From NCBI GenBank assembly GCA_964541235.1, contig CAZIPI010000014.1:666-64665 (forward strand): a DNA stretch of 64,000 nt, written 5' to 3'. The stretch's first letter is position 1. Each line of letters opens with the position of its first letter. The notes below the pieces were generated by a model that was not told the origin of the DNA, searched no databases, and saw nothing but the letters and a program-made list of their open reading frames with translations. Source of the DNA: an uncultured bacterium. Its GTDB lineage: Bacteria > Fermentibacterota > Fermentibacteria > Fermentibacterales > JCC-6. Shown in pieces: positions 2 through 54,038 of this stretch. Made by a program: the position numbers and the translations under genes.

Positions 2-163
2 ATATACGCCGGCTACTGGGCCACCACCGGCAACAGGACATTGACGGCTTTCTTCGGCAGCCCCACCGGCGACCTCTTCGAGTTCTGCCCGAATCTGCTG
101 CTGTCGGGAACAATGAACCTGTCTCCCATGACCTTCGGCGCCATAAAGGCGAGTTTCCAGTAG
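2..163 (+). CDS. C-terminal fragment of a third paralog of the candidate selenoprotein family (cut by window start)
   Basis: Frame-2 translation ends ...LLLSGTMNLSPMTFGAIKASFQ* (TAG 161-163). It matches the C-terminus of the 309..821 ORF (...YLNGTLSFQARTFGAIKASFD*). Confidence 0.4.
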   Translation: MYAGYWATTGNRTLTAFFGSPTGDLFEFCPNLLLSGTMNLSPMTFGAIKASFQ

Positions 164-200: not shown

Positions 201-821
201 ATGAGAAGTCTTGTGCTTGCGGGTCTGCTGGGATGTGCCGTGCTTGGCGCCGACATAGAGATCGGTACGAGCCAGTTCCCGGATGCGGTTCCCGTCTGCG
301 GGCCTTGAGTGCAGAACCTGCGCTACCAGGTGGTAGTGCTCGGAAGTGAGATCGGCAGCGCCATGACCATAGATGCCATCTCCTTTGTTGCGGCTCCGGA
401 AACAGGGGATTTCTCTTCATTCGACGAGTACAGGGTTTACATGGGTCCCACGACCCTGAACAGCCTGGGCACCGTCTTCGACGACAACTACAGCGGACCC
501 CGGCTCAATGTCTTCGACCATTCCAACGTGACGCACATGAATCAGGGCGGAATGGTGACCATCCCGCTGGACACTCCCTACTTCCACGCCGGGACCGGCA
601 ACCTGCTGATCGAGATAGATTACCAGATAGGCACGCCCATACCGGGCAATCAGAGCGTGTACGTCATGTACTGCTCGGTCCCGGATGACAGGATGCTGAG
701 GGCCAATGCTTCCGGCGCACAGAGCGGGCAGGCTTTCCCATTCCTTGCCCACATGTACCTGAACGGAACACTGTCATTCCAGGCGAGAACCTTCGGCGCC
801 ATCAAAGCGTCTTTCGACTAG
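201..821 (+). CDS. Secreted protein, candidate selenoprotein with in-frame UGA (306-308) in a C-G-P-U context; paralog 1
   Basis: ATG 201 encodes a signal-peptide-like MRSLVLAGLLGCAVLGA...FPDAVPVCGP followed by TGA at 306-308. The same frame continues without a break into the 170-aa ORF (VQNLRYQVVVLGSEIG...). A SECIS-like hairpin lies 11 nt downstream. If the UGA is a true stop, the CDS is 309..821 (GTG start). Confidence 0.45.
320..339 (+). promoter_or_regulatory. SECIS-like mRNA hairpin (8-bp stem gcgcuacc/gguagugc, loop AGGU) beginning 11 nt after UGA 306-308
   Basis: Base pairing was read directly from the sequence. The same structure and spacing recur in paralog 2. Confidence 0.4.
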
Positions 822-830
822 CGGGAGGTC

Positions 831-1466
831 ATGATCAGGGCAGCGCTCACCAGGAGTGTCACCAACCTGAAGTGGGCGCTGCCCTTTCTTTTCTGCAGCT
901 CCGCCGCGGCGGTCAGCATCGAGACAGGTGTTTCAGAGTTCCCGATGAACATTCCATTCTGCGGAGGTTGACACAGTCAGATGCGCTGCCAGGTGGTGGT
1001 GCCGGGAAGCGAAATGGGGGGCAGCGGAGTTTTTTCCGTGTTCATCGAGTCCATCTCCTTCAGGGCCGCCGCCCCTGAGACGGTTGCCTTCGACCGCTTC
1101 TCGGTATCGCTGGGCACAGCGGCGAACGGGTTCCTTGAGGAGAGTTTCCAGGGTAACTTTGCGGGAGAGAGAGTTAGCGTGTTTGAGGCAGAGGGGTGTT
1201 CGTTCACCCCTTCCGGGGGTTGGGTGTCCATCCCGCTGGAAAGGGAATACCTGTTCAACTGCTCGGATAACCTTCTCATAGAGGTGATCTACAGCGGAGC
1301 GGATGGCGGCATGCTCTACTGCGGTTTCGGGGAGACCGATGAAGTGCGGACTGTATGCAACGGAGACCACCAAAGCCCCCGGGGCTACACGTACCGGTTC
1401 GCACCCCATATTGTCATCTCCGGAACACTTGGAGTGAACACATTGTTCGGTGAGTGCATTCTGTGA
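831..1466 (+). CDS. Secreted protein, candidate selenoprotein with in-frame UGA (969-971) in a C-G-G-U context; paralog 2
   Basis: ATG 831 encodes MIRAALTRSVTNLKWALPFLFCSSAAAV...FPMNIPFCGG followed by TGA 969-971. The frame continues into HSQMRCQVVVPGSEMG..., paralogous to 201..821. If the UGA is a stop, the CDS is 981..1466 (ATG, with GGAGG 13 nt upstream). Confidence 0.45.
983..1002 (+). promoter_or_regulatory. SECIS-like hairpin (stem gcgcugcc/gguggugc with G-U wobbles, loop AGGU) beginning 11 nt after UGA 969-971
   Basis: It has the same loop, the same 8-bp stem register and the same 11-nt spacing as the hairpin at 320-339. Confidence 0.4.
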
Positions 1467-1510: not shown

Positions 1511-2869
1511 ATGAGGGTGATTCTGGCAGTTCTTGTCCTCGCCGCGGTAGCCGCCGCACAGTGCCCGTTGCGCCTGACCCCCGCCGAGGCGTGTTTCGAG
1601 GGTTCCCCCAGGTGCGCGCTCTATGTGGATTCCAACGGAGATCAGAGGTGCGACAACCCCGGTCCCCAACCGGTGATAGACCCCGAACCCGAGCCTGAGC
1701 CCGAACCTGAACCTGTTCCGGAAGAGGCTGCCCCGGTAGTCGAGGATACTCCCGTTATCCCTGAGCCCGAACCCACTCCAGCAGTCACCGAGGAAACCCG
1801 GCCGCAGCCCGTTGTGGAGGAGGCGATCCAGGAGGAAGAGGCTGTGCAGGAGGAACCTTCTCCCTCCGATACGCTTCCAGTGACAGCGGAGCCGCCGGCC
1901 TTCACAGGGTGCCCCCTTGGTCTGCCGCCCGAGGAGGCCTGTTACTCCGAGTCCCCAAGGTGCGCCCTCTTCACCGATTCGAACCAGGATGGAAGGTGCG
2001 ACAACCCGGGTGAAGCGGAGGAACGGCCCGACACCGTTCAGGCGGTTCCCGTAACGGGATGCCCCCTGGGGCTGCCTCCTGAGGCGGCATGCCCCGGCGA
2101 CCTGGCGCTGTGCCCGCACTGGTTCGGCCATTCGACAGGCGTCCCATGCTCCAACCCCTCCGGCGGGAGCAGAAGGGTTTACATAGCCCTTATCGCGCTC
2201 TCCATACTTATGATGGTCTCCACCGTGCTCAGCAGAAGGCTCCGGGGGAGAAAGCTGCATGACAGGCTCAGAAGGAGCATCGCACACAAAACGATCCACG
2301 GCTTGAGCCTTGTTACGCTGGGCTTCGGCATTCAGGGCTGTTTCTGCCCACTTGGAGCGTTCCAGTATGCCTTCCTGAAAGACGGCCTTCTGTTCCTGGG
2401 GTGGGCGGGTGTGGCCCTTCTGGTGATCCCATTCCTGTTCGCATCGTTCTTCGGCAGGATATTCTGCTGCTGGGTCTGTCCAATGGGCGCCATGCAGGAA
2501 CTGGCCTACCGGATCCCATCACCGGGCAAGCTGAACCCCCGGGGCCGTATCAGCAGGATCGTGGGCAGGTTTCGTTTCGTGGTGCTGGGAGGGCTGGTCA
2601 CTGTGCTGCTTCTGAACAGGTTCGGCATGATCCAGAGCCAGTGGCCCGCTATCTTCTGCAGGTTCGACCCCTTCCACACCATATTCACGCTGTTCCTCAC
2701 GGGGAGCATGATCGCAGCGGGTGTCACCCTTCTGCTCTCGGTCTTCGTGAGAAGGTTCTTCTGCAGGTACCTGTGCTTCCTGGGGGCAGCCCTGAGCCTC
2801 TTCGCGCCACTCAGGATCTACAGCCGCATCACGGGCAGGAAACAGCCGGCTTCAAGCTGCGACACCTGA
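1511..2869 (+). CDS. NapH/MauN-type membrane polyferredoxin (CxxCP motifs) fused to an N-terminal secreted domain with three Cys-rich repeats and a Pro/Glu-rich linker
   Basis: Signal peptide MRVILAVLVLAAVAAA. Three repeats of CPL-L-P-EAC...SPRCAL..DSN-D-RCDNPG. The C-terminal TM domain carries FCCWVCPMGAMQE and CRYLCFLGAALS, which are NapH-like CxxCP motifs. Confidence 0.55.
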   Translation: MRVILAVLVLAAVAAAQCPLRLTPAEACFEGSPRCALYVDSNGDQRCDNPGPQPVIDPEPEPEPEPEPVPEEAAPVVEDTPVIPEPEPTPAVTEETRPQPVVEEAIQEEEAVQEEPSPSDTLPVTAEPPAFTGCPLGLPPEEACYSESPRCALFTDSNQDGRCDNPGEAEERPDTVQAVPVTGCPLGLPPEAACPGDLALCPHWFGHSTGVPCSNPSGGSRRVYIALIALSILMMVSTVLSRRLRGRKLHDRLRRSIAHKTIHGLSLVTLGFGIQGCFCPLGAFQYAFLKDGLLFLGWAGVALLVIPFLFASFFGRIFCCWVCPMGAMQELAYRIPSPGKLNPRGRISRIVGRFRFVVLGGLVTVLLLNRFGMIQSQWPAIFCRFDPFHTIFTLFLTGSMIAAGVTLLLSVFVRRFFCRYLCFLGAALSLFAPLRIYSRITGRKQPASSCDT

Positions 2870-35349: not shown

Positions 35350-36213
35350 TCAACGGGAAGAGCTTCTGAGCATGGAGAGCAGCCTGTCCAGCTCATCCAG
35401 CGATGCGTACTCTATCTCGATGCTGCCCCTGCCCCCCGAGTCCCTGACCCTTACCCTTGTTCCCAGAACCCTTTGAAGGCTCTCTTCCAGCTGGGCGATC
35501 TCGGGGGAGCTTCGACGGGTGCCTGCGCGGGGCTTGACCGGCTTTCTGCGGAGCCTGACGAACTCCTCAAGTGCCCTTACGCTCATCCCCCTGTGAACCG
35601 CCAGCCCCGCCGCCCGCACTATGCCCTCTTCGTCGGAGAGACCGAGGAGGGCCCTTCCATGACCCATGGAGAGGGCTCCCGACCTGAGCATGGCCCTGAC
35701 CCTCTCAGGAAGCTCAAGAAGCCGCTGGAAGTTCGCGACGGCCGAGCGGCTGAGGCCAACCTGCCTTCCCAGTTCCTCCTGCGTCAGTTGGAACTCCTGG
35801 CAGAACCTGTGGAATGCCTCAGCCTTCTCCATCGGGTTCAGATCGGCCCTCTGAATGTTCTCCACGAGAGCCAGCGCCAGCATCTGCCGGTCATCGGCCT
35901 CGCGGAGCACCGCCGGGACCTCCTGAAGCCCGGCCATGGAAGAGGCTCTGACCCTCCTCTCTCCCGCGATGAGCTGGTACCTGTCTCCAGCCCTTCTTAG
36001 AACAACAGGCTGAAGCACTCCCTGGGCCCGTATGGAGTCGCTGAGGGACTGCAGGTCCTCCTGGCTCCAGTCCACCCTGGGCTGAAAAGGGTTCGAATCA
36101 ATGAGACGGATAGGGACCATGGCCGGCGCATCGGCCTCCCTGCCGCTTTCGGGAACACTTGGCAAAAGCGCCTCGAGCCCCCTTCCCAGAACCTTCCTGC
36201 CTTTTTCCTTCAC
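35350..36213 (-). CDS. parB: Chromosome partitioning protein ParB/Spo0J
   Basis: GLEALLP N-terminus, ParB box, HTH. Confidence 0.85.
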   Translation of the reverse strand: MKEKGRKVLGRGLEALLPSVPESGREADAPAMVPIRLIDSNPFQPRVDWSQEDLQSLSDSIRAQGVLQPVVLRRAGDRYQLIAGERRVRASSMAGLQEVPAVLREADDRQMLALALVENIQRADLNPMEKAEAFHRFCQEFQLTQEELGRQVGLSRSAVANFQRLLELPERVRAMLRSGALSMGHGRALLGLSDEEGIVRAAGLAVHRGMSVRALEEFVRLRRKPVKPRAGTRRSSPEIAQLEESLQRVLGTRVRVRDSGGRGSIEIEYASLDELDRLLSMLRSSSR

Positions 36214-36965
36214 CTCTCCATCACCTCCCTCGCAAGGCTCAGGTAACTGCCGGCGCCCTTTGAGAAAGGGTCGTACAGAATAGCCGGCTTTCCGAAGCTC
36301 GGCGCTTCGCCCAGTTTTACGTTCCTTGGTATGGTGGTGTTGAACAGCGCCTTGCCAAGGTGTGCCCTGGCCTCCTCGAACACTTCCCTGCTCAATTTCA
36401 GCCTTGAGTCGTACATCGTGACGACTACACCGAACAGAAGGAGCCTCCGGTTCCAGGCGGAACGCACCCTGGCTATGGTCTGCAGCAGGTGGGAAAGCCC
36501 TTCCAGTGCGTAGTACTCGCTCTGCACCGGCAGTATGACGCTGTCCGCGGCCACCAGCCCGTTCACCGTGAGAAGGCCGAGGGAGGGGGGGCAGTCTATC
36601 AGCACGTAGGAATACCTCTCGACCCTTCCCCTGAGGGCCCTGTCGAGGAAGAACTCCCTTCTGTCCTGTGAGGCCAGTTCCGTCTCCAGCCCGGCCATGT
36701 CCGTGGAACCGGGGACCAGGTCCAGTCCCTCGATGTCGGTTCCCACTATCAGTTCATCCAGGGGCCTTCTGCCTGCTATCAGGGCGTGCATCCCCTCCAT
36801 GCCCGCCTGCTGCCTTCCCAGTCCGCTGGTGGCATTGGCCTGGGGGTCGAGGTCAACCACCAGAACGTCCCTGTTGTTCACGGCAAGGCAGGCGCCGAGG
36901 TTTATCACTGTAGTGGTCTTGCCAACGCCGCCCTTCTGGTTGGCGACCGCAATTATCCTTGTCAT
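36210..36965 (-). CDS. parA: Chromosome partitioning ATPase ParA/Soj
   Basis: IAVANQKGGVGKTTT deviant Walker A. Confidence 0.9.
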   Translation of the reverse strand: MTRIIAVANQKGGVGKTTTVINLGACLAVNNRDVLVVDLDPQANATSGLGRQQAGMEGMHALIAGRRPLDELIVGTDIEGLDLVPGSTDMAGLETELASQDRREFFLDRALRGRVERYSYVLIDCPPSLGLLTVNGLVAADSVILPVQSEYYALEGLSHLLQTIARVRSAWNRRLLLFGVVVTMYDSRLKLSREVFEEARAHLGKALFNTTIPRNVKLGEAPSFGKPAILYDPFSKGAGSYLSLAREVMER

Positions 36966-37600
36966 CTCTTCCTTTTCACAGCTTTGAACCCCGATCCGGG
37001 ATGGCGAAACTGCACCATGAACCCCGGGCGGTCAAGAGGCGGTGAGGGCAGGGCAACCACAAGCTTTTCGCATGGAATGGAATACGGTTCCGCGACCCTG
37101 AGCGTGAGAGTGCAGCCGTCGGGCGCCGTCCCCGCAACGCGGGACAGGAGCTGTTCAGGGTCCTCCACTGCCCTCGCGGTAAAAGCGGTGTCCTTCGGGA
37201 AGGGGCCGGCCTCCTCGATGCCGCAGTGCATCGCCGCCGCGTTCCCCAGCCCCAGGGAGTCCAGCGCCCAGAGAAGGAACAGATACCTCTTCCTCCTTCT
37301 CTCCACCATGGTGACGTTCATTCCAAAGATCGCCAGGACCATTCCCGGGAACCCCGCTCCGCTCCCGATGTCCACCACCGGCCCTGCTTCCTTCAGGAGG
37401 GGCATGTACGCGGCGGACTCAAGGACGTGCCTTCCCCAGAGGCGTTCCATCTCCCGCGGACCCAGCAGGTTGCCGAACCTGCCCCCCATGCCGTGCTCAA
37501 GAAGGACCGCGAACTCGGAAAGCATCTGCAGGGCGCTCCCCGTGGGCTCCACCCCCAGCGCTCGGAGCGAAGAGGAAGCGTCATCCGGAATGTGTTTCAC
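36962..37600 (-). CDS. rsmG: 16S rRNA m7G527 methyltransferase RsmG (GidB)
   Basis: VVDIGSGAGFPG motif; position between parA and mnmG. Confidence 0.8.
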   Translation of the reverse strand: MKHIPDDASSSLRALGVEPTGSALQMLSEFAVLLEHGMGGRFGNLLGPREMERLWGRHVLESAAYMPLLKEAGPVVDIGSGAGFPGMVLAIFGMNVTMVERRRKRYLFLLWALDSLGLGNAAAMHCGIEEAGPFPKDTAFTARAVEDPEQLLSRVAGTAPDGCTLTLRVAEPYSIPCEKLVVALPSPPLDRPGFMVQFRHPGSGFKAVKRKR

Positions 37601-39377
37601 GTGGAACCTTTCCCCTGAGGGCCTGCAGTGTCATCACTTCCACATCCGACGCCCTCACCCCGGGAAGGCGTGAAGCCTCCCTTATGGTTAGCGGTTCGGC
37701 ATTGCATATGGCCTGCCTGGCTTCGATGGACATACCGGACAGCAGTTGCGCCGGGGGGACAGGCAGGTCGAGGTGTTCTCCTGCGGCGTGGACCCGCCTC
37801 TGATGCCTGCTGATGTATCCTCCGTACCTGATGTCGTTGAATACGCACCCGACTCCCTCGGGGTCCACCTCCTTCAACTCCGGGCAGAGCCCTGTGATCA
37901 CTCTGGTGGTGGTCTCGGGCCTTCTGCAGAGGGATTCCAGGCCGCTGCCGCCTATGAGAAGCCGGGCCCTCTCCCTGTGGGCTTCCAGAGCCTTCATCCT
38001 GCCCAGTCGCTCCCCTCCCAGGACACCAAGTCCGGTGCCGAACTCAATAAGCCTTGCGTGGGCGTTGTCCTGTCTCAGGTGAAGCCTGTTCTCGGCCCTG
38101 CTGGAGAAGAGCCTGTAGGGCTCCTCGATACCCTTGCTGACAAGGTCGTTGACCATGACGCCCAGGTAGCTCTGTTGCCTGTCCGGAACCGCAGGGGGCA
38201 TGTCCAGTGCTGTCCTTGCGGCGTTCGCGCCGGCGAGAAGGCCCAGCGCCGCTGCTTCCTCATACCCGGACGTCCCGAGGAGCTGGCCGGCCGCGAACAG
38301 GTTCACGGTCCCGCGAAGCCTGAGCGTTTCATCGAACGTGCCCCAGGCCAGCCTTCCGTACTCCACGGCATACCCGAACAGGGCGATCTCGGCCCTGTGG
38401 AAGCCGTCCATGCTTCTCAGCATCCGGTACTGGACGTCCTGGGGCATGCTGGTGGAAAGACCGTTCAGGTATGAAAGCCTTGAATGCTCCGCCACCGGCT
38501 CAACGTGTACAGGGTGATCGGAGCGCTCCGGGAACTTGAACACCTTGTCCTCGAAGCTTGGGCAGTACCTCGGGCCCCTTCCCCCTATGCGCCGGGAGAG
38601 CAGGGGCGATCTTCCGGCGTTCTCCCTTACGGCCTCGGCGGTCCTGACGTTTGTCCTTGCAAGGTGGCACAGCCTCTCCCCGCAGGTGCGTTCGCCGGTC
38701 TCCACGCTGAACCTGAAAGGGAAACGGTGAGCCTCCTGAACCTCCAGAGCGTCCAGATCAATGGAAGAGGTGACGATCCTGGGAGACGTCCCTGTCTTGA
38801 AACGTTCCACGTGGAACATTCCCGAGAGGAACCTGTGCAGCTCAACAGAGGGAAGGCCCCCGTCCCTTCCGCCGGGCCAGCGTTCATCCCCCCTGTAAAG
38901 GGTTCCGCCAAGGTACGTGCCGGTGGCGAGTACGAATGAGTCGCCCGGTACCGAGCGGCCACCGTCCAGCAGCGCTTCGGTGAACCTTTCGGGGCCCCCG
39001 CCGAGAGCCAGCGCCATGCCCTTCACCACCGTTACCCCGGCGGCGTCCAGCGCCCGCCTCACGAAGCGCGGGTACAGCCTTGAGTCGGACTGAACCCTCG
39101 GCCCCCACACGGCGGGCCCCCTGCTCATGTTCAGCATGCGGAACTGCAGTGATGTGCAGTCGGCCGCCAGCCCCATTATGCCTCCGAGGGCGTCGATCTC
39201 CCTTACGAGACATCCCTTGGCCACGCCTCCGATGGCGGGGTTGCAGGGCATCAGGGCTATGGCGCCCGGTTCCGCCGTAACAAGCACGGCGCGGGCCCCG
39301 ACCCTCGCCGCGGCCATTGCCGCCTCGGCGCCGGCGTGGCCGCCGCCCACCACCACCACCGTTCTACTTGCCGACAC
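37581..39377 (-). CDS. mnmG: tRNA uridine-5-carboxymethylaminomethyl modification enzyme MnmG (GidA)
   Basis: FAD-binding VVVGGGHAGAEAA, ~598 aa, conserved synteny. Confidence 0.9.
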   Translation of the reverse strand: MSASRTVVVVGGGHAGAEAAMAAARVGARAVLVTAEPGAIALMPCNPAIGGVAKGCLVREIDALGGIMGLAADCTSLQFRMLNMSRGPAVWGPRVQSDSRLYPRFVRRALDAAGVTVVKGMALALGGGPERFTEALLDGGRSVPGDSFVLATGTYLGGTLYRGDERWPGGRDGGLPSVELHRFLSGMFHVERFKTGTSPRIVTSSIDLDALEVQEAHRFPFRFSVETGERTCGERLCHLARTNVRTAEAVRENAGRSPLLSRRIGGRGPRYCPSFEDKVFKFPERSDHPVHVEPVAEHSRLSYLNGLSTSMPQDVQYRMLRSMDGFHRAEIALFGYAVEYGRLAWGTFDETLRLRGTVNLFAAGQLLGTSGYEEAAALGLLAGANAARTALDMPPAVPDRQQSYLGVMVNDLVSKGIEEPYRLFSSRAENRLHLRQDNAHARLIEFGTGLGVLGGERLGRMKALEAHRERARLLIGGSGLESLCRRPETTTRVITGLCPELKEVDPEGVGCVFNDIRYGGYISRHQRRVHAAGEHLDLPVPPAQLLSGMSIEARQAICNAEPLTIREASRLPGVRASDVEVMTLQALRGKVPRETHSG

Positions 39378-40569
39378 AGAGAACGCTCAGCGCCCGCTCC
39401 ACCGCAGTGAGGTCGTGGCGGATACCCGTGATCTCCTCTGCAATGGTCTCGGCCTCTCGTATGAGCCCGGCTGCGATCCCGGGCTCCTGGTCCGCCGTTG
39501 CCCGGGCCTCCAGAAGCAATGACAGGACCCGGGATGCCATGTGCTCAGCGGGAGACGAAGACATGTCAACGAGGCATTTCACAAGTTCCCCGACCCCCTC
39601 GCCTGTCACTGATGAAACCCGTTGCCCGTTGAGGCTGTGGGTGTCGCTTTTGGACAGGACCGTAAGAACCCTTGCCCCCCTTGAGAGAAGCACTTCAGGC
39701 GCCCCCTCTCCGCCGGGGCTGAGCCAAACCACCATGTCCTCGGGTCGGATCCCGCTCAGCGAAGCCGCAAGCGCCGCCCCGTCCAGGGCTCCGCCCCCGA
39801 ATCCCGGCGTGTCTATCAGAAGGAACCTCCGCCCCTGAAGGGAGACCTCCCTGCGGGCGCCGTCACGGGTGGTCCCGGGTTCCGGATGGACAAGGGCCAC
39901 GAATGAGCCGCACAGCGTGTTCATCAGGGTTGACTTCCCGGCGTTCACCCTTCCGGTCAGATAGACCTTCGCTGCCCTGGAAAGCCCTTGTGCGCTCTCG
40001 AGAAGTTCCCTGGCGGACCCGACGGCCGCCTCAAGGGCATCCACTGGGTCATGCCGGCACCGGCTGCTCTCCTCGGGGAACTCGATGGACCCCTCGATGT
40101 CCTCCAGGGCTTTCGAGATCATCTTTTGAAGGGCGGGCACGGCAACGTCAAGCGGGTCCGCCTTGCGGCCCGTCTCCACCGCCGCGGCCAGGGCAAGTAT
40201 CTGCTGGCCGGACACCCTTCCGTTGCGCCAGGCCCTTCCTGTGAACTCCCCGGGCAGCGCGCCTCTGGCTCCCGCCCCGATAACTGCGTCCAGAAGGGCC
40301 GAGACGAACTCGGGTATGCCGTGGCAGATGAGTTCCACCATCTCTTCCCCGGTGTAGCTGCCGCCCTCGGGCCAGGCCAGCGCCACCACATCCCCGGCGC
40401 GCGGGATCACGGCAACAGCCCTCCGCATGCCCCTGAGCCTGCCCCCCTCAAGCCCTGCAAGACCCTCCACCAGGGCGCAGCACCCGGGGCCGGAGAGCCT
40501 CACCACCGCCAGGGCAGACAGCCCCGGCGGAGTGGCAACGGCGGCTATGATATCGTTTTCAGGGGTCAC
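39364..40569 (-). CDS. mnmE: tRNA modification GTPase MnmE (TrmE)
   Basis: GRVNAGKSTLMN G-domain and a C-terminal ...LCVGK. The GTG start at 40569 overlaps the yidC stop (GTGA). The 692-aa track ORF is an over-extension. Confidence 0.8.
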   Translation of the reverse strand: MTPENDIIAAVATPPGLSALAVVRLSGPGCCALVEGLAGLEGGRLRGMRRAVAVIPRAGDVVALAWPEGGSYTGEEMVELICHGIPEFVSALLDAVIGAGARGALPGEFTGRAWRNGRVSGQQILALAAAVETGRKADPLDVAVPALQKMISKALEDIEGSIEFPEESSRCRHDPVDALEAAVGSARELLESAQGLSRAAKVYLTGRVNAGKSTLMNTLCGSFVALVHPEPGTTRDGARREVSLQGRRFLLIDTPGFGGGALDGAALAASLSGIRPEDMVVWLSPGGEGAPEVLLSRGARVLTVLSKSDTHSLNGQRVSSVTGEGVGELVKCLVDMSSSPAEHMASRVLSLLLEARATADQEPGIAAGLIREAETIAEEITGIRHDLTAVERALSVLCVGK

Positions 40570-42128
40570 CTGGGCTCTTCGGCCTCCATCTTCTTCCTGA
40601 TAAGCTCCTGATGGCCCATGGTGAGAAGGTTGAACACCATCCAGTAAAGGTTCATGCCGGCCGCGAACTTCATGAAGATGTAGCTCATGAACACCGGCAT
40701 CAGGTACATCATGCCCTTCTGCTGCTGCATCGAGGCCGAACTCATCTTCTGCTGGATGATCATGAACGCGGCGCTCACAAGCGCCATGAGCCCTATCCCG
40801 TGAAGACCGAGGATGGGGGCCTGGAACGGGATGAGTATCTCCGGCCTTGACAGGTCGGTCATCCACAGCACGAAGGGAGCGCCCCTGAGTTCCACTGCGT
40901 TCCCCAGAACCCTGTACATGGCGAAGAACACCGGCATCTGCAGAAGCATGGGAAGACACCCTCCGAGAGGGTTGGCGCCGGACTCCCTGTAGAGCTTCTG
41001 CATTGCCTGCTGCTGTTTCTGCGGGTCGGCCGCGTATTTCTGCTGTATCTCCTTTATGGCCGGGGAAAGCTTCTGCATCTTCTGCATGGCCACGAAGCTC
41101 TTCTTGGTGAGGGGCATCATAAGGAGCTTGAGTGTGAAGGCCAGAACGATTATCCTGAGGCCCCAGTTGCCAATGAACGAGAGAACGCGGTCGAGATACA
41201 GGAAGATCAGCTGAGCAAGCTGTCTGACCACGGGAAAGCCGAAGTCCACCATTTTGCCGGTGTCGCTTCCCAGGCCGGTCAGGACCGTGTAGCTCACGGG
41301 TCCGGCGTAAACAGTGACGTTCTCCGCTTCCAGTGAAACTTCGGGGGAGCTTCCGGCACCAGGTGCGACAAATCCGCTGACCCTCTCCCGCGACTGCGGA
41401 AGAAGCACGATGCAGAAGTACCTTGATGAGGCGGCGACCCACCTGCTGTTGCCGGTTCCCTCAAGCGCATCGATGGCGGTTGCTTTCCTGCGTGTCATCT
41501 TGTTGGTGTACCAGCAGGCGGAATAATACTGCCTGAGGTCGGCCCCGGCTTCCGTGACCGGTATCGCCCCGGACTGCACGGTCATCCTGCCGGAAAGCCC
41601 TTCCTCGGATACGTCGAAGGCGTAGGATCCGCTTCTGAACCTGAAGGTGCGGGTGGCGCTCCCGGCGGTCATCACCACTTCGGCATCTCCGGCGACCACC
41701 ACGGTGTCCGGGCTGTTGCAGTGGAAGGCCACCGGTTCGCCCCTGGAGTTCATCGCCATGAGCCATGGTTCCCTGGCAAGGTTCACCGCTTCCCCGGAGG
41801 CATCCCCTGTAAGATCGGGGTAGCTGTTCAGCGACCAGCGGGTGACGCCCCCGCCGAAGGTTGTCAGACGGGCGTCCACGAGGACCGATTCGCCGTCCAT
41901 TATCAACACGGTTATTGCTCGTGGGGATGTCTGCTCTTCATGGAAGTCCACCGGTGGCTCAGGCTCGGGCTGGTCAGGGGCAAGGAGTTCGGGGGCCGTT
42001 TCCCGCACCTCTCCCGTCTGCGCTGGAGGGGTGGTCGTCCTGGGGCCGGCCAGGAACCAGCTCAAGGCCAGGACCGCCATCATGAGCGCGGCTGCTAGAA
42101 GCATTCGTGACTGGTCACTGATCGCCAT
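40566..42128 (-). CDS. yidC: Membrane protein insertase YidC
   Basis: N-terminal TM and periplasmic domain; conserved C-terminal 5-TM core. Confidence 0.9.
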   Translation of the reverse strand: MAISDQSRMLLAAALMMAVLALSWFLAGPRTTTPPAQTGEVRETAPELLAPDQPEPEPPVDFHEEQTSPRAITVLIMDGESVLVDARLTTFGGGVTRWSLNSYPDLTGDASGEAVNLAREPWLMAMNSRGEPVAFHCNSPDTVVVAGDAEVVMTAGSATRTFRFRSGSYAFDVSEEGLSGRMTVQSGAIPVTEAGADLRQYYSACWYTNKMTRRKATAIDALEGTGNSRWVAASSRYFCIVLLPQSRERVSGFVAPGAGSSPEVSLEAENVTVYAGPVSYTVLTGLGSDTGKMVDFGFPVVRQLAQLIFLYLDRVLSFIGNWGLRIIVLAFTLKLLMMPLTKKSFVAMQKMQKLSPAIKEIQQKYAADPQKQQQAMQKLYRESGANPLGGCLPMLLQMPVFFAMYRVLGNAVELRGAPFVLWMTDLSRPEILIPFQAPILGLHGIGLMALVSAAFMIIQQKMSSASMQQQKGMMYLMPVFMSYIFMKFAAGMNLYWMVFNLLTMGHQELIRKKMEAEEPR

Positions 42129-42348
42129 CGTTCCCTTCCTCCGGTACGGGGTCGTATCCTCCCCGGTTCCATGGGTTGCACCTGAGTATCCTCTTCAGTG
42201 CCAGTCCCGATCCCCTGGCAACGCCGAACCTTTCCACCGCTGTTCTGGCGTAGCTGCTGCATGACGGCGTGAAGCGGCATGACCTTGGCAGAAGAGGGGA
42301 CAGGAATCTCCTGTATCCGTCTATCAGGAAAAGGACCATGCCCTTCAT
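42115..42348 (-). CDS. yidD: Membrane protein insertion efficiency factor YidD
   Basis: YRRFLSPLLPRSCRFTPSCSSYA signature. Confidence 0.85.
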   Translation of the reverse strand: MKGMVLFLIDGYRRFLSPLLPRSCRFTPSCSSYARTAVERFGVARGSGLALKRILRCNPWNRGGYDPVPEEGNDGDQ

Positions 42349-42722
42349 CTCCTGGCTTCCGTAACCAGCTTGTTGAAGTCATCGCGGAGCGCTGGCCATC
42401 CGATCTCCCTGAGCTTCACCAGCGGCGTCACTACGGCGTCGAATCCCCGGCCTTCACGGTCCTCGCGGGCCAGCTGCCTGAGCCTTCTTCTGAACAGGTT
42501 CCTCTCCACGGCATTCCCTGTTCTTCTCGATACGGAAAACCCCAGGCGTATAACGCCCAGGGTGTTTCTGCAGTGTCTCGCCTTTACTGTTCCGCCGGTG
42601 AATCGGTTCCCCGACTTGAAAAGGCGGATGAACTCCGGAGTTCTCTTCAGGGAAAAACACGGGGTTCCGGTTCTGTCAGCCCTAGGGCACCAGTCTTTTG
42701 CGGCCCTTCCTTCTTCTGGCAT
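42345..42722 (-). CDS. rnpA: RNase P protein component RnpA (start probably internal, ~42650)
   Basis: [20 protein letters not shown]...[11 protein letters not shown]. The track ORF overlaps rpmH, so the true start is likely downstream of 42682. Confidence 0.7.
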
Positions 42723-42816
42723 TCAGAACCTTCCTGCCGCCCCGGGTGGCCATTCTGGCCCTGAACCCATGCTTCCTTACCCTTGAGATCCTGCTGGGCT
42801 GATAGGTTCTCTTCAT
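42682..42816 (-). CDS. rpmH: 50S ribosomal protein L34
   Basis: Manual translation of the minus strand gives [44 protein letters not shown]. It is below the ORF-track length cutoff. Confidence 0.85.
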
Positions 42817-43095
42817 GACCCGTTCCTTCTTGACTAAACCGGCGGCTGGTTGCCCCGGGAAACAAAAAATGCCTATTCCAATGGGAAGCGGAATTTTACT
42901 AATTCACGCGGGGCGTGTCAAGCTCTTTTCCGCCCTTGCCAACGGAAAAGAAATCAACATGTTCTGGTCTGTATCGAGCGGCCCGGATTTTCATTCAATT
43001 GCTGTGCAAGTGTTTACTACGGCCGGAGGTGTGTTGAAAACTATGTTGATCATTGCTGACCCTGTTGTGTGCATTCGTCTTACGGCTCTTCTCAG

Positions 43096-44412
43096 ATGTT
43101 CCTGAGCAACACATCCGAGTCCGCCTGGTCCCAGTGTCTTTCGATGGCGAAGGAGCGGCTTGGGCTCGATACGTTCAACTCGTGGCTGGCCGGCTCCAGG
43201 TTCGTGAGCTTCGAGTACGAGACATTCACCGTTGAGTTCAAGGACGATTTCAGCGCCGGTTTCGTCTCAGCCCACTTCTCCGAGAAGCTCCGGCCCATCC
43301 TGGCTGAGCTTCTGGAATGCCCCGACCTCCATTTCCGCGCCATCTCCGCGTCCCGCAGCGTCCCTGCAAGGCGCGAGAACCTTCTCCCAACCATGCTGAG
43401 GTCAACCTACACCTTCGAACGGTTCATCGTTGACGACAACAACAGGCTCGCCTACGCAACAGCGGTCTCAGCCGCGAAGAACATGGGCTCCGATCTTGCC
43501 AACCCCCTATTCATCTACGGCGGGGTCGGCCTGGGCAAGACCCACCTCATCCAGGCTGTGGCCCACTACGTAAGCAATCACAGGCCCGACCTTCTGGTCC
43601 GCTACATATCAAGCGAGGCATTCCTGAACCAGCTCGTTGCAGGCTTCAACAACAAGAGCACCATGGAGGCGTTCGAGAAGCGTTTTCGTGACGTTCACTA
43701 CCTTCTCATGGACGACGTTCAGTTCTTCGGCGGAAAGCAGGTCCTCGAGCAGAAGCTCTTCCACATCTTCAACGACCTTTACCTTCAGGGAAGGCAGATC
43801 GTTCTTACGTCGGACAGGCCTCCCCATGAGATAGAGCCGCTGGAGGAGCGTCTTGTCTCAAGGTTCCAGTCCGGCATCGTTGCCGATATCAAGCCGCCGG
43901 GCCTTGAGACAAGGGTCGCCATTCTCAGCCAGATCGCCAGGGAAAAAAGGATCTCCATAGAAGACGAGATCATGTACCTGATCGCGGACTCGGTTAAGTC
44001 CAACGTACGCCAGCTCGAGGGTGTGGTCAACCTCATTGCCGTGCGCTCCCAGGTTCTGAACATCTCCATAACCAAGGACCTTGTTCGCAACATAATCGCC
44101 GAGTCTTTGGGAGCGGGAACGCGCCATCTTAACCCGGGCAGCATAACAAGCGCCGTGGCGGAAGCCTTTTCCATCAACCCTGCGCTGATAAGGGGAAAGC
44201 AGCGCAAGCGCGAGGTACTTATCCCCCGGCATGTTTCCATGCTGCTCATAAGGGACCTGACCGACACACCCCTTACGGAGATCGGCCGCTTCTTCTCGGG
44301 CCGAGACCATTCCACGGTTCTCAATGCCATTGCACGGATCAAGGAGATGATGGCCGAGAACCCTTCCCTGAAGAGGAAGGTTCAGGACGTGAAGGAAAGC
44401 CTCACCAGCTGA
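43096..44412 (+). CDS. dnaA: Chromosomal replication initiator DnaA
   Basis: AAA+ Walker A GGVGLGKTHL and a C-terminal DnaA-box-binding domain. The track start is 43069; MFLSNTS at 43096 is more likely. Confidence 0.9.
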   Translation: MFLSNTSESAWSQCLSMAKERLGLDTFNSWLAGSRFVSFEYETFTVEFKDDFSAGFVSAHFSEKLRPILAELLECPDLHFRAISASRSVPARRENLLPTMLRSTYTFERFIVDDNNRLAYATAVSAAKNMGSDLANPLFIYGGVGLGKTHLIQAVAHYVSNHRPDLLVRYISSEAFLNQLVAGFNNKSTMEAFEKRFRDVHYLLMDDVQFFGGKQVLEQKLFHIFNDLYLQGRQIVLTSDRPPHEIEPLEERLVSRFQSGIVADIKPPGLETRVAILSQIAREKRISIEDEIMYLIADSVKSNVRQLEGVVNLIAVRSQVLNISITKDLVRNIIAESLGAGTRHLNPGSITSAVAEAFSINPALIRGKQRKREVLIPRHVSMLLIRDLTDTPLTEIGRFFSGRDHSTVLNAIARIKEMMAENPSLKRKVQDVKESLTS

Positions 44413-44662
44413 CGATGTTCAAAAACCTCCTGCTTTCCTGTGGAAAAAGTGTTGATGCTCCTTACGGAAATCACTTTCGCGAATGATTGTGGGAAAAACC
44501 GTTTCTCCAATCCCGTTGCCCACGGGTTTTCAACACCTCGAACTACCTGCCCGCCACCCCCGGAGCCTTACTTTTCCACAAATCCACATGTATAATTGTG
44601 ATGACTATTCTTTAGATGTTTGAACTCTACCTCTCTGTAACTGTGTGGAAGGAGAGATGCGC
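44413..44662. promoter_or_regulatory. Candidate oriC: dnaA-dnaN spacer with multiple DnaA-box-like 9-mers and an AT-rich unwinding element
   Basis: TGTGGAAAA (44439-44447), TGTGGGAAA (~44488), TTTTCCACA (44572-44580), ATCCACA (44582), TGTGTGGAA (44642). AT-rich tataattgtgatgactattctttagatgtttgaa (44591-44625). Confidence 0.55.
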
Positions 44663-45775
44663 ATGGTGAAGCTTCTGGTATCCTACGGAGACCTTCTCAA
44701 GGGCCTTAGCATTGTGGCCAATGCTCTGCCTCCAAAAACTAGTCTGCCGTCCCTGACCAACATTCTTCTCGAGACCCAGGGCGACCGGTTGAGCCTTGCC
44801 GCCACCGATCTCGACACCTCTGTGATCACATCGGTGCCGGCCACCATCAGCACCCAGGGATCGGTGGCCCTTCCAGGCAAGAAGCTTCTCGAGATCGTAA
44901 AGGAGCTTCCCGGCGGCGACATTCACATCGGCGGCTCCGGAAGCAGGATCACCATTTCCTGCGGCAACAGCAACTTCATCCTTGCGGGGAGCAGCAGGGA
45001 CAGCTTCCCGTCCCTTCCTTCCGCCAGCGAGGTTTCCTTCACCGAACTGCCCATAAAGGCGGTATCGGAAGCGGTGAGGAAAACCGCGTTCGCCGTGGCG
45101 TCCGACGACTACCGGCCCGCACTCAACGGCGCGCTCTGGAAAATGGGGCCCGAGGGGCTTGAGATGGTGGCCACCGACGGGCACCGCCTGGCCCGGATGC
45201 GCCTTTCAGAGCTTGTCTCCCAGAAGCCCATGGAGGCCATCGTGGCGCCCAAGGCATTGAACCTTCTGGGCCGGCTGGGCGAGGACGAGAACATCCTTCT
45301 CGGCTCCCAGGGCACGCAGATCTGCTTCAAATCAGGAGAGACGGCGGTGTTCAGCAGGATCATCGAGGGGCCCTATCCCCCCTACGAGAAGGTGATACCC
45401 GGGGAGAACCCGTTCCTGCTCACCGTGAACCGCGTTGACATCATAGCCAGCCTGAGAAGGATGAGGATCATTGCGAACCCTGCAACCCATCAGGTTCGTT
45501 TCACCCTCGAACAGGGGAGGATGATACTTCAGGCCGAGAACACCGATGCAGGCGAAGCCAGGGAGGAACTCCAGGCCCGTTTCGACTCCGACCCGCTGCA
45601 GATCGCGTTCAACGGAGACTTCCTGATGGAGATACTGAAGAACATGGACAGCGAATCGGTTGTCATGAAGATAAGGGATGGGGCCACCGCAGTTGTCATA
45701 GAAGAGCTGGAACAGGATTCCGGCATGGAGTACCTGGCTCTGCTGATGCCGGTGCGGCTGGCCACCCCGGCGTAG
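44663..45775 (+). CDS. dnaN: DNA polymerase III beta sliding clamp
   Basis: Three-domain clamp, ~370 aa. AAGGAG lies 8 nt upstream of ATG 44663; the track start is 44645. Confidence 0.9.
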   Translation: MVKLLVSYGDLLKGLSIVANALPPKTSLPSLTNILLETQGDRLSLAATDLDTSVITSVPATISTQGSVALPGKKLLEIVKELPGGDIHIGGSGSRITISCGNSNFILAGSSRDSFPSLPSASEVSFTELPIKAVSEAVRKTAFAVASDDYRPALNGALWKMGPEGLEMVATDGHRLARMRLSELVSQKPMEAIVAPKALNLLGRLGEDENILLGSQGTQICFKSGETAVFSRIIEGPYPPYEKVIPGENPFLLTVNRVDIIASLRRMRIIANPATHQVRFTLEQGRMILQAENTDAGEAREELQARFDSDPLQIAFNGDFLMEILKNMDSESVVMKIRDGATAVVIEELEQDSGMEYLALLMPVRLATPA

Positions 45776-45792
45776 CGAAAGGTTCTCCGCTT

Positions 45793-50483
<4,691 letters not shown>

Positions 50484-50487
<4 letters not shown>

Positions 50488-53400
50488 CCAGCAAGGACGC
50501 TCTGAAGGCCAGGCTTGCAACATGGTTGTCGGTGCATGGCGAAGACAGGGCGCTGCCTCCCCCGGTATCGGTACCGGCTCTTCCCGCGGTGCGCCCGGAG
50601 GTCCTGAACGCCACTCCTGCCGCCGCCGCCGCGCTGGGAGGCCTTCCGCTGTTCAAGCCCTGGAGGAGGGCGCTGCCCGTGGCCGCGTCTCTGCTCACGG
50701 GCATGGAAGCAGGCTCCGGCGGCGCCATCTTCAAGAAGCTCCAGACCCTGAGATCCCCGCCGGCGTCCGCCGAGCTGGCCCTTGAGTGGTTTTCCGCAAT
50801 TCACCTCCTTCCCCACAACCTTTGGGACCTGGGGATGGAGGGGTTCTTTCAGCTCGCCGGGACACTGTCCGAGAACGGCGGTCCCTCCGACGAACCCGGT
50901 CTCGGGAGCGCTCTCGCAAGCTGGTACAGGGTTCTGAGAAGCTGCGGCGACGGCAACCTGGGCGAAGACGCCGCGTCCTTCTGCCTTGATCTTGCAGGTT
51001 TCTGGCCGGGCCACTTCGCATACCTCTGCGACAGGCTCTCCTCGGGTGGTGAAGAAGTTCATGAGGCACTGAAGAAAGCCGCGGCCTTCAAGAATGTTTC
51101 CGAGAACAACCGGGCCGTGCTTCTGGATTTCGCCGCCGACCTGGGCTGGCTCTACCGCGGTGACGAGTTCGCCCCCCTGTGGGAGATAGTGGCCAGAAGG
51201 GGAATGCCCATTTACAGAAGGATCGCCGAGGGCATGGCCCCCATGGGCTCCATCAGGTTCTACTGCGGCGCCATGAGAGCCCTTCAGAAGAAACGGGGCA
51301 TTGACGAGCTTCTCTCCGAGGAGAGGGTTCACAGGGCCATGGTCCTGTTCAGGACCGACGAGGTGGATGTGGTTGCATCCGTGCTGAAATCCAGCCCGGT
51401 AGCTTGCAGCTACCTTGACTCGCAGATGGAGATAGATCTGGCCATCGACCTCTTCTCGATACGCACCTCGGGGACCGAGAACCCTTCCTCCCTGGGGGAG
51501 GACTTCATAGAAATGGTGGACTCAGCCCAGAAAGGCATCACATACCAGGGGCTCGTCAAGTTCCTTTCCGTGATGCAGGGAAGGGTCGAGGGGGAACCCC
51601 TGGCATTCGTGAGCGGCTACCTGACCGACGCGGGTGAGAAGAGCTTCTACACCGCAGTGGACGCCATGAGGATGTACCGGATCACCGAGGTCGTCTTCTC
51701 GGTGGGAAGGACCGCTGACCGCCGCAGCCTCAGGACAGTGTTCCGGGCCCTTGACGGCGCGCCGTCGGGAAGAAGGGGGCTGGCACTGCTTGAAAGGGCC
51801 TTGTCCCGCAGGGGGAGCCACCTCCCGCACCTCGCCGCAGTTGCATCACTGCTGGTCAGGGCCGCCCCCGACGATGATGCCGCAGCATACCTGAACAGGG
51901 CCCGGGGCATGGCGGACGTGTTCTCACTGCTCACGCCCGTTGACAGGGGCAAGCTGTCGTCGGGGCTGGCTCCGGCATGGATGGAGAAGCTGCTGGACGC
52001 TGAACCGGAAGCCGAGAAGACGGTCATCCAGTTCCTCGGCAGGGTTGAGGACCCCTCCAGGAGGCTCAGGTTCCTTGACATGGTGGTGGCGCCGCTGATG
52101 CAGGAGGTCAGCGCCTCCGACCCGCTCTTCAGTGACTGCCTTGCCTTCGCGGTCACGGGCTACAATTCGGCGCCTGAGCAGGACAGGCTTCGTGAGGCCG
52201 AGAACCTGACCCTTCAGAGGGTTTTCAGGGCAGGGGGCAGGGTCGCCGCCCTGGATGTTCTGATGCAGGACTTCCTGGCAATGCCCGGATTGTCGAGGCA
52301 TCGCTCCGAAGAACTGCTTGCCGGGATAAGGGCCATCTGCGACAGGTTCAGCAGACAGGCCGTCTGGCAGGAGGGCTTCGACAGGATCTTCTCCAACTTC
52401 CTGGAAGAGGGCATTAGAAGGATACTGAACGCGTTCATGGAGGTGCCCGATTCACTGGATACCGTTGACAGCGGGTTCATAGCCCGGCTGGCGGACAGGC
52501 TGATGCCGGTGAGACATGCAGGCGCCAGCGTTTCCACTGGCGCCGGGCGTTCCGCGATGGCCTTCTTCACCCAGGTCCTTCCTGAAAGCGTGTTCTTCTA
52601 CCACAGGTGCCTGGATCAGCTGGCGGGCTTCCTCGAGAAGGCCATAGACATGGCCCAGAGAAGCATCGGGGGCATCCCGGCGGGCGAGGAGTTCCTCTCC
52701 CACCTGGCCGGCGAGATCCAGGAGAGCCGTGCACTCGAGTTCTCCACAAGCCTTGATGCGTGGCTCAGGGGCAACCCGGCCCCCACCGCCGAGACCGACA
52801 ATTTCAACCCCGAGGAGATACTGGGTTCGTGGTACGGGATCCATGAAGCCCGGGAAGTGCCGAGGAAACGGCTGGGCGGAGTCGCTGCACTGGTGACCTC
52901 ATCGCAGACCCGTCGGGAGGAACTGCTGAAGCTCTGCTCCGTGCTCAGCGCGGGTCTCGCTTCGACGGGGGTTCCGGGGGGGGATCAGCTTGATTTCCAT
53001 TGCGACAGACAGGCCCTGATGAAGCTGAAGGCAACCCTGGGCGATAGACGGGACCTGCTGGACCTCTTCATATCCATCAGAAGGGGCAGGGTGCAGCCTG
53101 GAGACGAAAAGGCGGTCGCCGAGCTTTCCATGGCTGCGGAGGATACCGGCGGCGATCCGGTCCACGCCTGGGCACTCAGGAACCTGCCGCCCCTACTCAA
53201 CTGCGCCCTGATGATGATGCTGGCGGAGCCCGCCGACCCTGAAAAGGCACTGGCCATTGCTGCCTCCATAGTGGAAGTGGTTGATTTCATGGGGTCCGAA
53301 GGCGCTTCGGAGCTTCTTCTGATGGTTGCCGGATGTCTTTCCGCCGCGGCGTTCCCCGGTCAGGCGCCGGACCTTCTTGAAAGGCAGCTCTTCGGACCGA

Positions 53401-54038
53401 TGTGGAAAACAAGGGCACTTGACCGTATCGAGCTCTTCCTGGCCGGCCGTTCACAGCGCAGGCGTCTTCTCGAGCTTCTTCTGGAAAGGCTCCGTCTTGA
53501 ATCCGGCACCCCCGAAAGGGTTTCTTTCATCAGGCGTTACGGAACCATGTTCATCTGCGTCTGGGGGTACGTTCTGGAGAAGCCGTTCCCGGACACCGAG
53601 AAGATCATGACCGAGGTGCTGTCCGGTTCCTGGGTTTTCACCGATGGAGGGAACCAGCCCCAGTACCCGGCGGCGCTCCAGGAGATCCACGACCTGGTGA
53701 GGGACGAGGTCAGGAAGCGCAAACACGCCTTCGGGGTGGTATCCATGGAGGAGGCCCGTGAGATCAGCGCCGACATGCGCAGGAAGTACAGGGACAACGC
53801 CGATTCGGTTGCGATCCTTCTGCGATGGACGGTTGACCCCGCAAGAGAGGACCTGCTAAGGCTTCTTGAAGAGAACGAGACCCTGCTCCAGGCCGTGAGC
53901 ACCGACCACGAGCTTCTTCACCTTCTGGACATGTTCGGCGGCAACAAGGAGATCATGGGAAGGGCCGCCGGACTCGCCGCCGACCCTGCGAAGCTCAAGA
54001 AGAGCCTCTCCGACTTCTCGAGGAGAAGAGATGACTGA
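50484..54038 (+). CDS. Large (~1184 aa) Ala/Leu-rich hypothetical protein, translationally coupled to gyrA
   Basis: The start MTSKDALKA overlaps the gyrA stop (ATGA). No recognisable catalytic motifs; predicted all-helical. Confidence 0.5.

Follow-up and report, generated by a model that had tools for sequence, protein, structure and literature searches.

The subject of this analysis is a tandem array of small genes at the very beginning of a 64,000-nucleotide stretch of DNA (the window) from an uncultured bacterium of the phylum Fermentibacterota (GenBank contig CAZIPI010000014.1, positions 666 to 64,665), each gene containing one in-frame TGA codon that is very probably read as selenocysteine (Sec). 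Two paralogs, B and C, lie entirely within the window, while paralog A is represented in it by its end, its start being located just upstream in the same contig (locus L001). In each gene a predicted signal peptide is followed by the motif C-x-x-U, with U denoting the residue at the TGA codon, and then by a 165-amino-acid (aa) beta-sandwich domain. The array comprises the following features, given in window coordinates unless stated otherwise:

Just upstream of the window (L001 9256-9855), plus strand: start of paralog A with its signal peptide, C-A-T-U motif, and hairpin.
2-163, plus strand: C-terminal end of paralog A, stop codon TAG 161-163; identical to L001 9256-9855 (protein P0013).
201-821, plus strand: paralog B, full putative selenoprotein gene; ATG 201, proposed Sec codon TGA 306-308 (residue 36), stop codon TAG 819-821, precursor of 206 aa.
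201-251, plus strand: predicted signal peptide of paralog B, MRSLVLAGLLGCAVLGA preceding DIEIG, assigned from sequence features and the AlphaFold2 model of a Cys homolog.
297-308, plus strand: C-G-P-U motif of paralog B, TGC 297-299 and TGA 306-308.
320-339, plus strand: hairpin of paralog B resembling a selenocysteine insertion sequence (SECIS), GCGCUACC-AGGU-GGUAGUGC; stem from 11 nt past the UGA, within the codons for L-R-Y-Q-V-V-V-L.
831-1466, plus strand: paralog C, full putative selenoprotein gene; ATG 831, proposed Sec codon TGA 969-971 (residue 47), stop codon TGA 1464-1466, precursor of 211 aa.
960-971, plus strand: C-G-G-U motif of paralog C, TGC 960-962 and TGA 969-971.
983-1002, plus strand: SECIS-like hairpin of paralog C, GCGCUGCC-AGGU-GGUGGUGC; stem again from 11 nt past the UGA.

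The frame opened by ATG 201 stops at TGA 306-308, and both GTG 309 and the called open reading frame (ORF) 309-821 share that frame; likewise, the frame opened by ATG 831 stops at TGA 969-971, and 972/981-1466 lies in the same frame. The junctions read ...FPDAVPVCGP-TGA-VQNLRYQVVVLGSEIG in paralog B and ...FPMNIPFCGG-TGA-HSQMRCQVVVPGSEMG in paralog C. Coordinates and peptides bear out an earlier note on this DNA, in which each of the two ATG-initiated frames was said to cross one TGA into a called ORF, the TGA being placed at an equivalent position two residues past a conserved Cys; in the full-length alignment A1, the Cys and the U are both invariant. The note had also regarded positions 2-163 as the C-terminus of a third copy and the locus as a tandem array, and rightly so, as L001 provides the start of paralog A, MKTSLLLLALLVLPAIAADVEIGSTQFPYNAPLCAT-TGA-TESLRYQVVVLGSEIG (motif context ...PLCAT-TGA-TESLRYQ), with the same layout as in B and C. 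Orthologs of paralog C are found at loci L006, L009, L012, L014, and L016, and a version of this paralog type with Cys in place of U at L011 and L031.

A search of 5.8 billion proteins for relatives returned only 26 clusters, whose members are all 144-177 aa long, unnamed or described as "hypothetical", and called from after the TGA. Their upstream DNA was read in contigs from ENA, JGI, NCBI, and Logan, together with 14 GTDB species representatives and 13 metagenome contigs. Among ca. 39 distinct Sec-type copies, collected from over 20 assemblies of Fermentibacterota, the codon is TGA in every one and never TAA or TAG, while TAA, TAG, and TGA are all in use as true stops of the family genes. 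GTDB titles assign the hosts to Ca. Fermentibacteria/Fermentibacteraceae (Hyd24-12), to which the genome of the window is close, and to Ca. Aegiribacteria. All Sec-type copies have a signal-peptide-like start and share the layout (D/T)(V/I)EIG...FP...P(F/L/W)-C-(G/A)-x-TGA-x4-R(Y/C)Q-V-V-V. The motif itself varies in distant Sec forms, being C-x-U in L042 (at 866), C-U in L043 (at 406), and S-x-x-U with no nearby Cys in L044 (at 7989), so that in some forms the selenol would act without a resolving Cys at -3. The 20 codons 5' of the TGA have a ratio of nonsynonymous to synonymous differences per site (pN/pS) of 0.20-0.36 at a pS of 0.47-0.74, indicating purifying selection at the protein level, and the 20 codons 3' of the hairpin resemble them (pN/pS of 0.17-0.48); for paralog B, the ratio is 0.36 before the TGA and no different after it. 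What is expected of a bacterial selenoprotein gene, a conserved in-frame TGA with coding sequence on both sides, is therefore present, and from the conservation of the TGA and the constraint on either side of it, it follows that the codon is translated, but not which residue is inserted.

An in-frame stop, taken by itself, could also point to pseudogenes, to an assembly or sequencing error, or to a genome-wide reassignment of UGA (genetic code 4 or 25). The occurrence of the same TGA in more than 20 independent assemblies, in lineages with proteins only ca. 35% identical, rules out pseudogenes and errors, and reassignment is contradicted by the window, in which TGA ends most of the well-defined genes (gyrB, gidA, and dnaA among them), Pfam domains are complete within stop-to-stop ORFs, and the G+C content is 62%; explanations of this kind are scarcely credible beside a genuine, translated UGA. 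In the codon that precedes the UGA (window 303-305 and 966-968), the third position is occupied by U in 28/29 copies, irrespective of the residue encoded (GGT, AAT, CCT, TCT, GAT, ACT), which may reflect a context needed for recoding.

Homologs with a Cys codon (TGC/TGT) in place of the TGA, which the earlier note had proposed to look for, do exist. In L011 (1406-2011) the junction ...FPVNAPFCGA-C(TGC)-LDRLRYQVLVPGSE is part of one continuous ORF of 201 aa, and in L031 and L032 TGT stands at the TGA position, one paralog type having switched to Cys inside the phylum. A profile search of 1.84 billion representatives for further full-length single-domain homologs yielded P0084, P0103, P0108, and P0113, which are single-domain, full-length, and carry CGDC or CGFC, as well as P0138 and P0167, which retain only the Cys aligned with U, implying that conservation is stronger at the U position than at the preceding Cys. 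The L044 type (SNG-U) has its Cys counterpart in P0167 (SNG-C). Cys homologs aligned to the TGA thus occur in at least two organisms.

Gene callers treat the locus differently: every database entry of the family is annotated as if a short secreted or leader peptide ended at the UGA and a separate cytoplasmic protein were made by termination and re-initiation, for which GTG 309 and ATG 981 lie suitably near the TGA. Such a pair of genes is very unlikely. No homolog is organized as clearly separate genes, an arrangement that the earlier note had named as one that would speak against its proposal, and each Cys form is one uninterrupted ORF; past the TGA no start codon is conserved, called starts ranging from +1 to +20 codons, and the stop is TGA without exception, never TAA or TAG. 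Moreover, the relatives of the domain are extracellular, hence the domain needs a signal peptide, and its first beta-strand (VEIG) is predicted by modelling to lie upstream of the TGA.

A hairpin lies just downstream of the UGA. According to folding predictions, it has in both window genes an 8-bp stem, which starts exactly 11 nt past the UGA, and an AGGU loop. Throughout the family the stem is 6-8 bp long, the loop is AGGU (with variants AGUU and AGGC), and the spacer is 11 nt, except for 14 nt in one case, the C-U form L043. A hairpin with 8 of 8 pairs exactly 11 nt past a triplet is found at 4.8e-4 of window positions and, among 2066 TGA triplets, only at 306, at 969, and at one antisense site. 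The synonymous sites of codons +5 to +10, within the hairpin, are fixed: CGC is used in 29/29 copies, a Tyr or Cys codon ending in U or C in 29/29, CAG in 29/29, and GTG in 28/28, and the rare codon GTA is kept in 21/27. Equally conserved neighbouring residues, in contrast, vary at synonymous sites (Ser+13, AGT 14 and AGC 13; Glu+14, GAG 14 and GAA 13; likewise Gly+16 and Ala+18), and pS is 0-0.2 in the hairpin versus 0.5-0.8 in the flanks.

Distant members retain the structure, as in L043 (GCACCACC/GGUGGUGC), L044 (GCAUCACC/GGUGGUGC), L046 (ACGCUACC/GGUAGCUU), and L047 (UCGCUAUC/GAUGGCGA). The upper six base pairs are formed in 39/39 sequences, compensatory changes on both sides are seen in four of the eight pairs, and in none of 500 shuffles do the pairing, the covariation score, or the count of compensatory pairs come up to the values observed. 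An earlier covariation count, limited to 30 close copies, had been weak (one pair, 49/500 shuffles), the signal becoming clear only with the distant members added. Four genes encoding Cys were examined (L011, L031, L026, and L028); each has different codons here, and in each the hairpin is destroyed. Bacterial SECIS elements are characterized in the literature by a small apical loop that contains G and directly follows the UGA (PMC1088965), and the family hairpin, a stem-loop just past the UGA with such a loop, conforms to it; the earlier note's suggestion that a bacterial SECIS be sought near the two UGAs has thus led to a SECIS-like hairpin at both, conserved, with compensatory changes, and lost in the Cys copies.

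One distant member of the family, P0073, is carried by L046, a 40.7-kb JGI contig of a Sabulitectum-like organism, where it is embedded in a selenium gene cluster:

L046 6934-14243, selD on the opposite strand: yedF, a Se/S-carrier gene, the family gene, a gene for a type IX secretion system (T9SS) protein, selD, selA, and selB, in this order.

The cluster includes matches to TIGR03527 (yedF), PF11823 (Se/S-carrier), TIGR00474 (selA, 489 bits), and TIGR00475 (selB, 322 bits), and its yedF and sel genes are above the NCBIfam equivalog cut-offs. The family gene reads ...ARPFCGS-TGA-YASLRYQ, with the hairpin present. The selD gene is itself of the Sec-containing kind, ...DYAACAG-TGA-AGK (AG-U-AGK, the known UxxK motif), and in its stem-loop a G-rich loop begins ca. 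20-22 nt past the UGA, the distance in the family hairpin being 19 nt; this selD also has a Cys-rich N-terminal extension (CPCPNTPCKRFGNCVEC). With the L046 SelB as a query, the closest database proteins are those named selenocysteine-specific elongation factor by NCBI, from Ca. Sabulitectum (78% identity; phylum Fermentibacterota), Ca. Fermentibacteraceae, Ca. Fermentibacterales, and Ca. Aegiribacteria. Judging from these sequences of relatives, the Sec-decoding trait is present across Fermentibacterota and beside one member of the family. A scan of the related loci for additional TGA codons followed by a hairpin, or for TGA junctions between coding sequences, found only the selenoprotein family described here.

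Several points weigh against the Sec reading. Neither selA, selB, and selD nor the gene for tRNA-Sec was found in the 64-kb window, and none of them in ca. 470 kb of related loci except for the sel genes of L046: tblastn with E. coli SelA, SelB, and SelD gave no match in 43 sequences, the window and related loci among them, ARAGORN detected no tRNA-Sec in the window or the related loci, and Rfam showed only tRNA-Ser, the sole tRNA of the window. The Sec machinery, for which the earlier note had proposed to search, is therefore found in the lineage, as named SelB proteins and as selD(U)-selA-selB next to the L046 member, but not in the window, and tRNA-Sec was not found. A family gene within a selenium cluster is seen at one locus only, and the SelB evidence comes from relatives in the lineage. 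The folding energies of the window hairpins are unremarkable at 62% G+C in comparison with shuffles (z = -0.7 and +1.1), so the case for the hairpin is a comparative one, and no Rfam SECIS model matched, at gathering or E-value thresholds. The hairpin overlaps the conserved peptide R-Y-Q-V-V-V, and a part of its conservation is thus owed to the protein. Finally, the function ascribed to the family is drawn solely from motif, fold, and gene neighbourhood.

As conserved TGA, coding constraint, and conserved hairpin attest to translation rather than to the identity of the residue, and the Sec machinery is not found in the window sequence, the same data could be accommodated by a read-through of the UGA without Sec, in which the hairpin promotes near-cognate or suppressor decoding (e.g., as Trp, Cys, or Arg). 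That is unlikely, since the residue aligned in homologs is always Cys, a hallmark of Sec sites, the position and the small G-containing loop of the hairpin are as in bacterial SECIS elements (PMC1088965), and its geometry is akin to that of the SECIS of the Sec-containing selD in L046; furthermore, SelB occurs across the phylum, and one family member lies within a sel gene cluster. In all likelihood, the genes code for small secreted selenoproteins whose conserved UGA is read as Sec, and the interpretation of the earlier note is supported.

The N-terminal extension of the proteins resembles a signal peptide, with a K/R n-region, a hydrophobic core of 10-15 residues, and an A-x-A-type cleavage site. 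It was assessed by eye and by means of the AlphaFold2 model of the Cys homolog P0108, in which residues 1-17 are of low confidence and the fold begins at residue 18, with the "VEIG" strand; the view of the earlier note, that the extension supplies an export signal, agrees with this prediction. AlphaFold2 models were available for P0001 (the part after the UGA) and for P0108, a natural full-length Cys homolog, and in both the mean predicted local distance difference test score (pLDDT) is 89 and the fold is an all-beta jelly-roll. The C-x-x-C/U motif is placed by the models in the loop preceding the R-Y-Q strand. A thioredoxin-like alpha/beta architecture with the motif at a helix is not what they show, the models being all-beta. 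The best matches among solved structures are the carbohydrate-binding module (CBM) of acetylxylan esterases, PHR domains, phage tail-fibre domains, and CBM32, and no PDB chain was matched at the sequence level. No match was found in Pfam-A (E<=1) or NCBIfam (E<=0.01), either for the truncated Sec forms or for the full-length Cys forms.

The beta-sandwich domain belongs to a large group without a Pfam or NCBIfam model, with 4590 representatives at E<=1e-3 (proteins P0027-P0174 among them). Many of its members are three-domain lipoproteins of ca. 565 aa (LTACGGGGG lipobox), and others are surface proteins of giant size, in which CBM96, disaggregatase, PKD, and Big domains occur; in the six multi-domain members that were read, the Cys/Sec is absent. 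A C-terminal tail, TFGxIKAxF(Q/D), is conserved in both Sec and Cys single-domain forms (window 795-818), is of low confidence or predicted to be disordered in both AlphaFold2 models, and is missing in paralog type C, where 831-1466 ends with ...LFGECIL. Its role may lie in docking or sorting.

For the selenoprotein, the following course of events can be proposed. Translation from ATG 201 (or 831) would produce a cleavable signal peptide, after which the ribosome would meet the UGA two residues past the conserved Cys. The hairpin within the coding sequence, with its stem 11 nt past the UGA and its 4-nt AGGU loop, would act as a bacterial SECIS, recruiting SelB with Sec-tRNA(Sec). Selenocysteine would be inserted, and translation would proceed into the 165-residue beta-sandwich domain. 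The mature protein would be of ca. 185 aa, with the C-x-x-U centre in a loop just ahead of the first core strand, and would be encoded in an array of one to three genes between a tRNA-Asp gene and a gene for a NapH/NosR-type membrane iron-sulfur protein. These flanking genes are:

Just upstream of the window (L001 9030-9106), minus strand: tRNA-Asp(GTC), in the same place in nearly all related loci (Fermentibacteria and Aegiribacteria).
1511-2869, plus strand: NapH/NosR-like membrane Fe-S protein (Fer4_5); Pfam PF12801, with partial matches to NosR/NapH of NCBIfam; candidate redox partner.

In all 14 GTDB species the tRNA-Asp(GTC) gene, on the opposite strand, precedes the array, and in 14/14 species loci the NapH/NosR-like Fer4_5 protein directly follows the selenoprotein gene or genes, of which there are one to three in Fermentibacteria and one in Aegiribacteria. 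In the window, the NapH/NosR-like protein has a signal peptide, and its transmembrane and Fe-S module is preceded by three extracytoplasmic repeats rich in Cys (CPLxLxPxEAC...SPRCAL...RCDNPG). Genes for an SNF transporter, a DsbD_2 protein, a 401-aa protein of unknown nature, and ferredoxins lie further downstream. For the SNF transporter gene, tblastn yields a pair of overlapping segments in one frame in every Aegiribacteria locus (L018-L025, e.g., L018 3619-5310) as well as in L017, which suggests that ca. 80 aa are inserted or internally duplicated relative to the window copy.

The phylum is described as one of fermenters without respiratory chains, possibly reducing elemental sulfur, in sulfidic habitats (PMC5030696). 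Taken together with the invariant NapH/NosR-like neighbour, these traits may point to an extracytoplasmic selenol/thiol centre, and the best guess at its function is that of a redox centre or of a protein that would bind or carry sulfur or selenium species, recharged by the NapH-like protein. A more far-reaching possibility, put forward tentatively and with considerable doubt, is that the CxxU proteins and the NapH/NosR-like protein constitute a hitherto unknown phylum-wide extracytoplasmic selenium-dependent system, in which electrons from fermentation would be passed to a secreted selenol that reduces or carries external chalcogens (S0, polysulfide, selenium). If true, such a chalcogen system would account for the sulfur-rich habitats, as well as for the location of the L046 family gene inside the yedF/Se-S-carrier/selD-selA-selB cluster.

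The remainder of the window comprises the chromosomal origin region and genes for a V-ATPase, 2-oxoacid:ferredoxin oxidoreductase, and the methylmalonyl-CoA pathway:

35350-50487, minus and then plus strand: origin region, with parB/parA, gidB, gidA, trmE, and yidC on the minus strand and dnaA (43060-44412), dnaN, gyrB, and gyrA on the plus strand.
50418-54038, plus strand: ORF of 1206 aa with a good coding signal (G+C content at third codon positions of 0.77) and no Pfam match at E<=1e-5.

Other in-frame TGA junctions of the window (30120; 21856, minus strand) were considered and found to be ordinary gene boundaries, such as those between genes for an acetate kinase-like protein and POR and between genes for a B12-binding protein and MeaB.

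In a review from May 2026, 119 prokaryotic selenoprotein families are listed (PMC13188914, Table 1), almost every one of them covered by a Pfam or NCBIfam model. None of the 119 corresponds to the present family by name, fold, or model scan, the few families represented only in CDD or PANTHER lying outside the scan and being set apart by their different folds; the statement of the earlier note that no recognised selenoprotein family is matched holds against this list and against Pfam and NCBIfam. No link of Fermentibacterota (Fermentibacteria, Hyd24-12, Aegiribacteria) to selenocysteine or selenoproteins was found in the literature, and selenium is not mentioned in the Hyd24-12 genome paper. 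On sequence grounds, the genes almost certainly make up a new selenoprotein family with a canonical decoding mechanism, known to date from Fermentibacterota alone, a phylum without cultured members.

The family is closest in type to bacterial selenoproteins with a CxxU or UxxC motif (SelW-like, AhpD-like, and CC/Se motif proteins; PMC13188914), with which it shares a UGA two residues from a Cys, Cys homologs, a stem-loop with a small G-containing loop, and, as we infer, SelB-dependent decoding. It differs from them in the jelly-roll fold, which is neither thioredoxin-like nor AhpD-like, in its predicted secretion, in having no Pfam or NCBIfam model, and in its occurrence, as far as seen, as one to three tandem paralogs in Fermentibacterota. 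The outer-membrane barrel receptor selenoprotein of Desulfobacterota is likewise a cell-envelope protein, with a motif of the F-C-x-x-U type comparable to the (F/L/W)-C-(G/A)-x-U found here, whereas the present protein is a soluble single domain of 185 aa, and no sequence match appeared in the NCBIfam scan. The CBM-like and PHR jelly-rolls (PDB 7tog/7tok, acetylxylan esterase CBM; 3gbw/3no8, PHR; phage tail-fibre) are similar to it in fold at 6-12% identity and a TM-score of no more than 0.47, but, unlike the selenoprotein family, have no Cys/Sec centre. As to NapH/NosR and DsbD-type relays, the Fer4_5 neighbour and the nearby DsbD_2 protein and ferredoxins suggest a transfer of electrons through the membrane to an acceptor outside the cytoplasm; the acceptor, linked to the relay by synteny, would here be a beta-sandwich selenoprotein and not NapG, NosZ, or a thioredoxin-fold protein.

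If the genes are indeed translated in this way, they represent a further selenoprotein family, unusual in its cellular location and in its scaffold, which would be a jelly-roll that is secreted instead of a thioredoxin-like fold. The public protein entries found for the family are all truncated at the UGA and named "hypothetical", which renders the signal peptide and the active-site motif invisible to annotation. The phylum-wide linkage with the NapH/NosR-like gene offers a testable handle on an extracytoplasmic redox function in hosts that abound in anaerobic digesters and sulfidic sediments.

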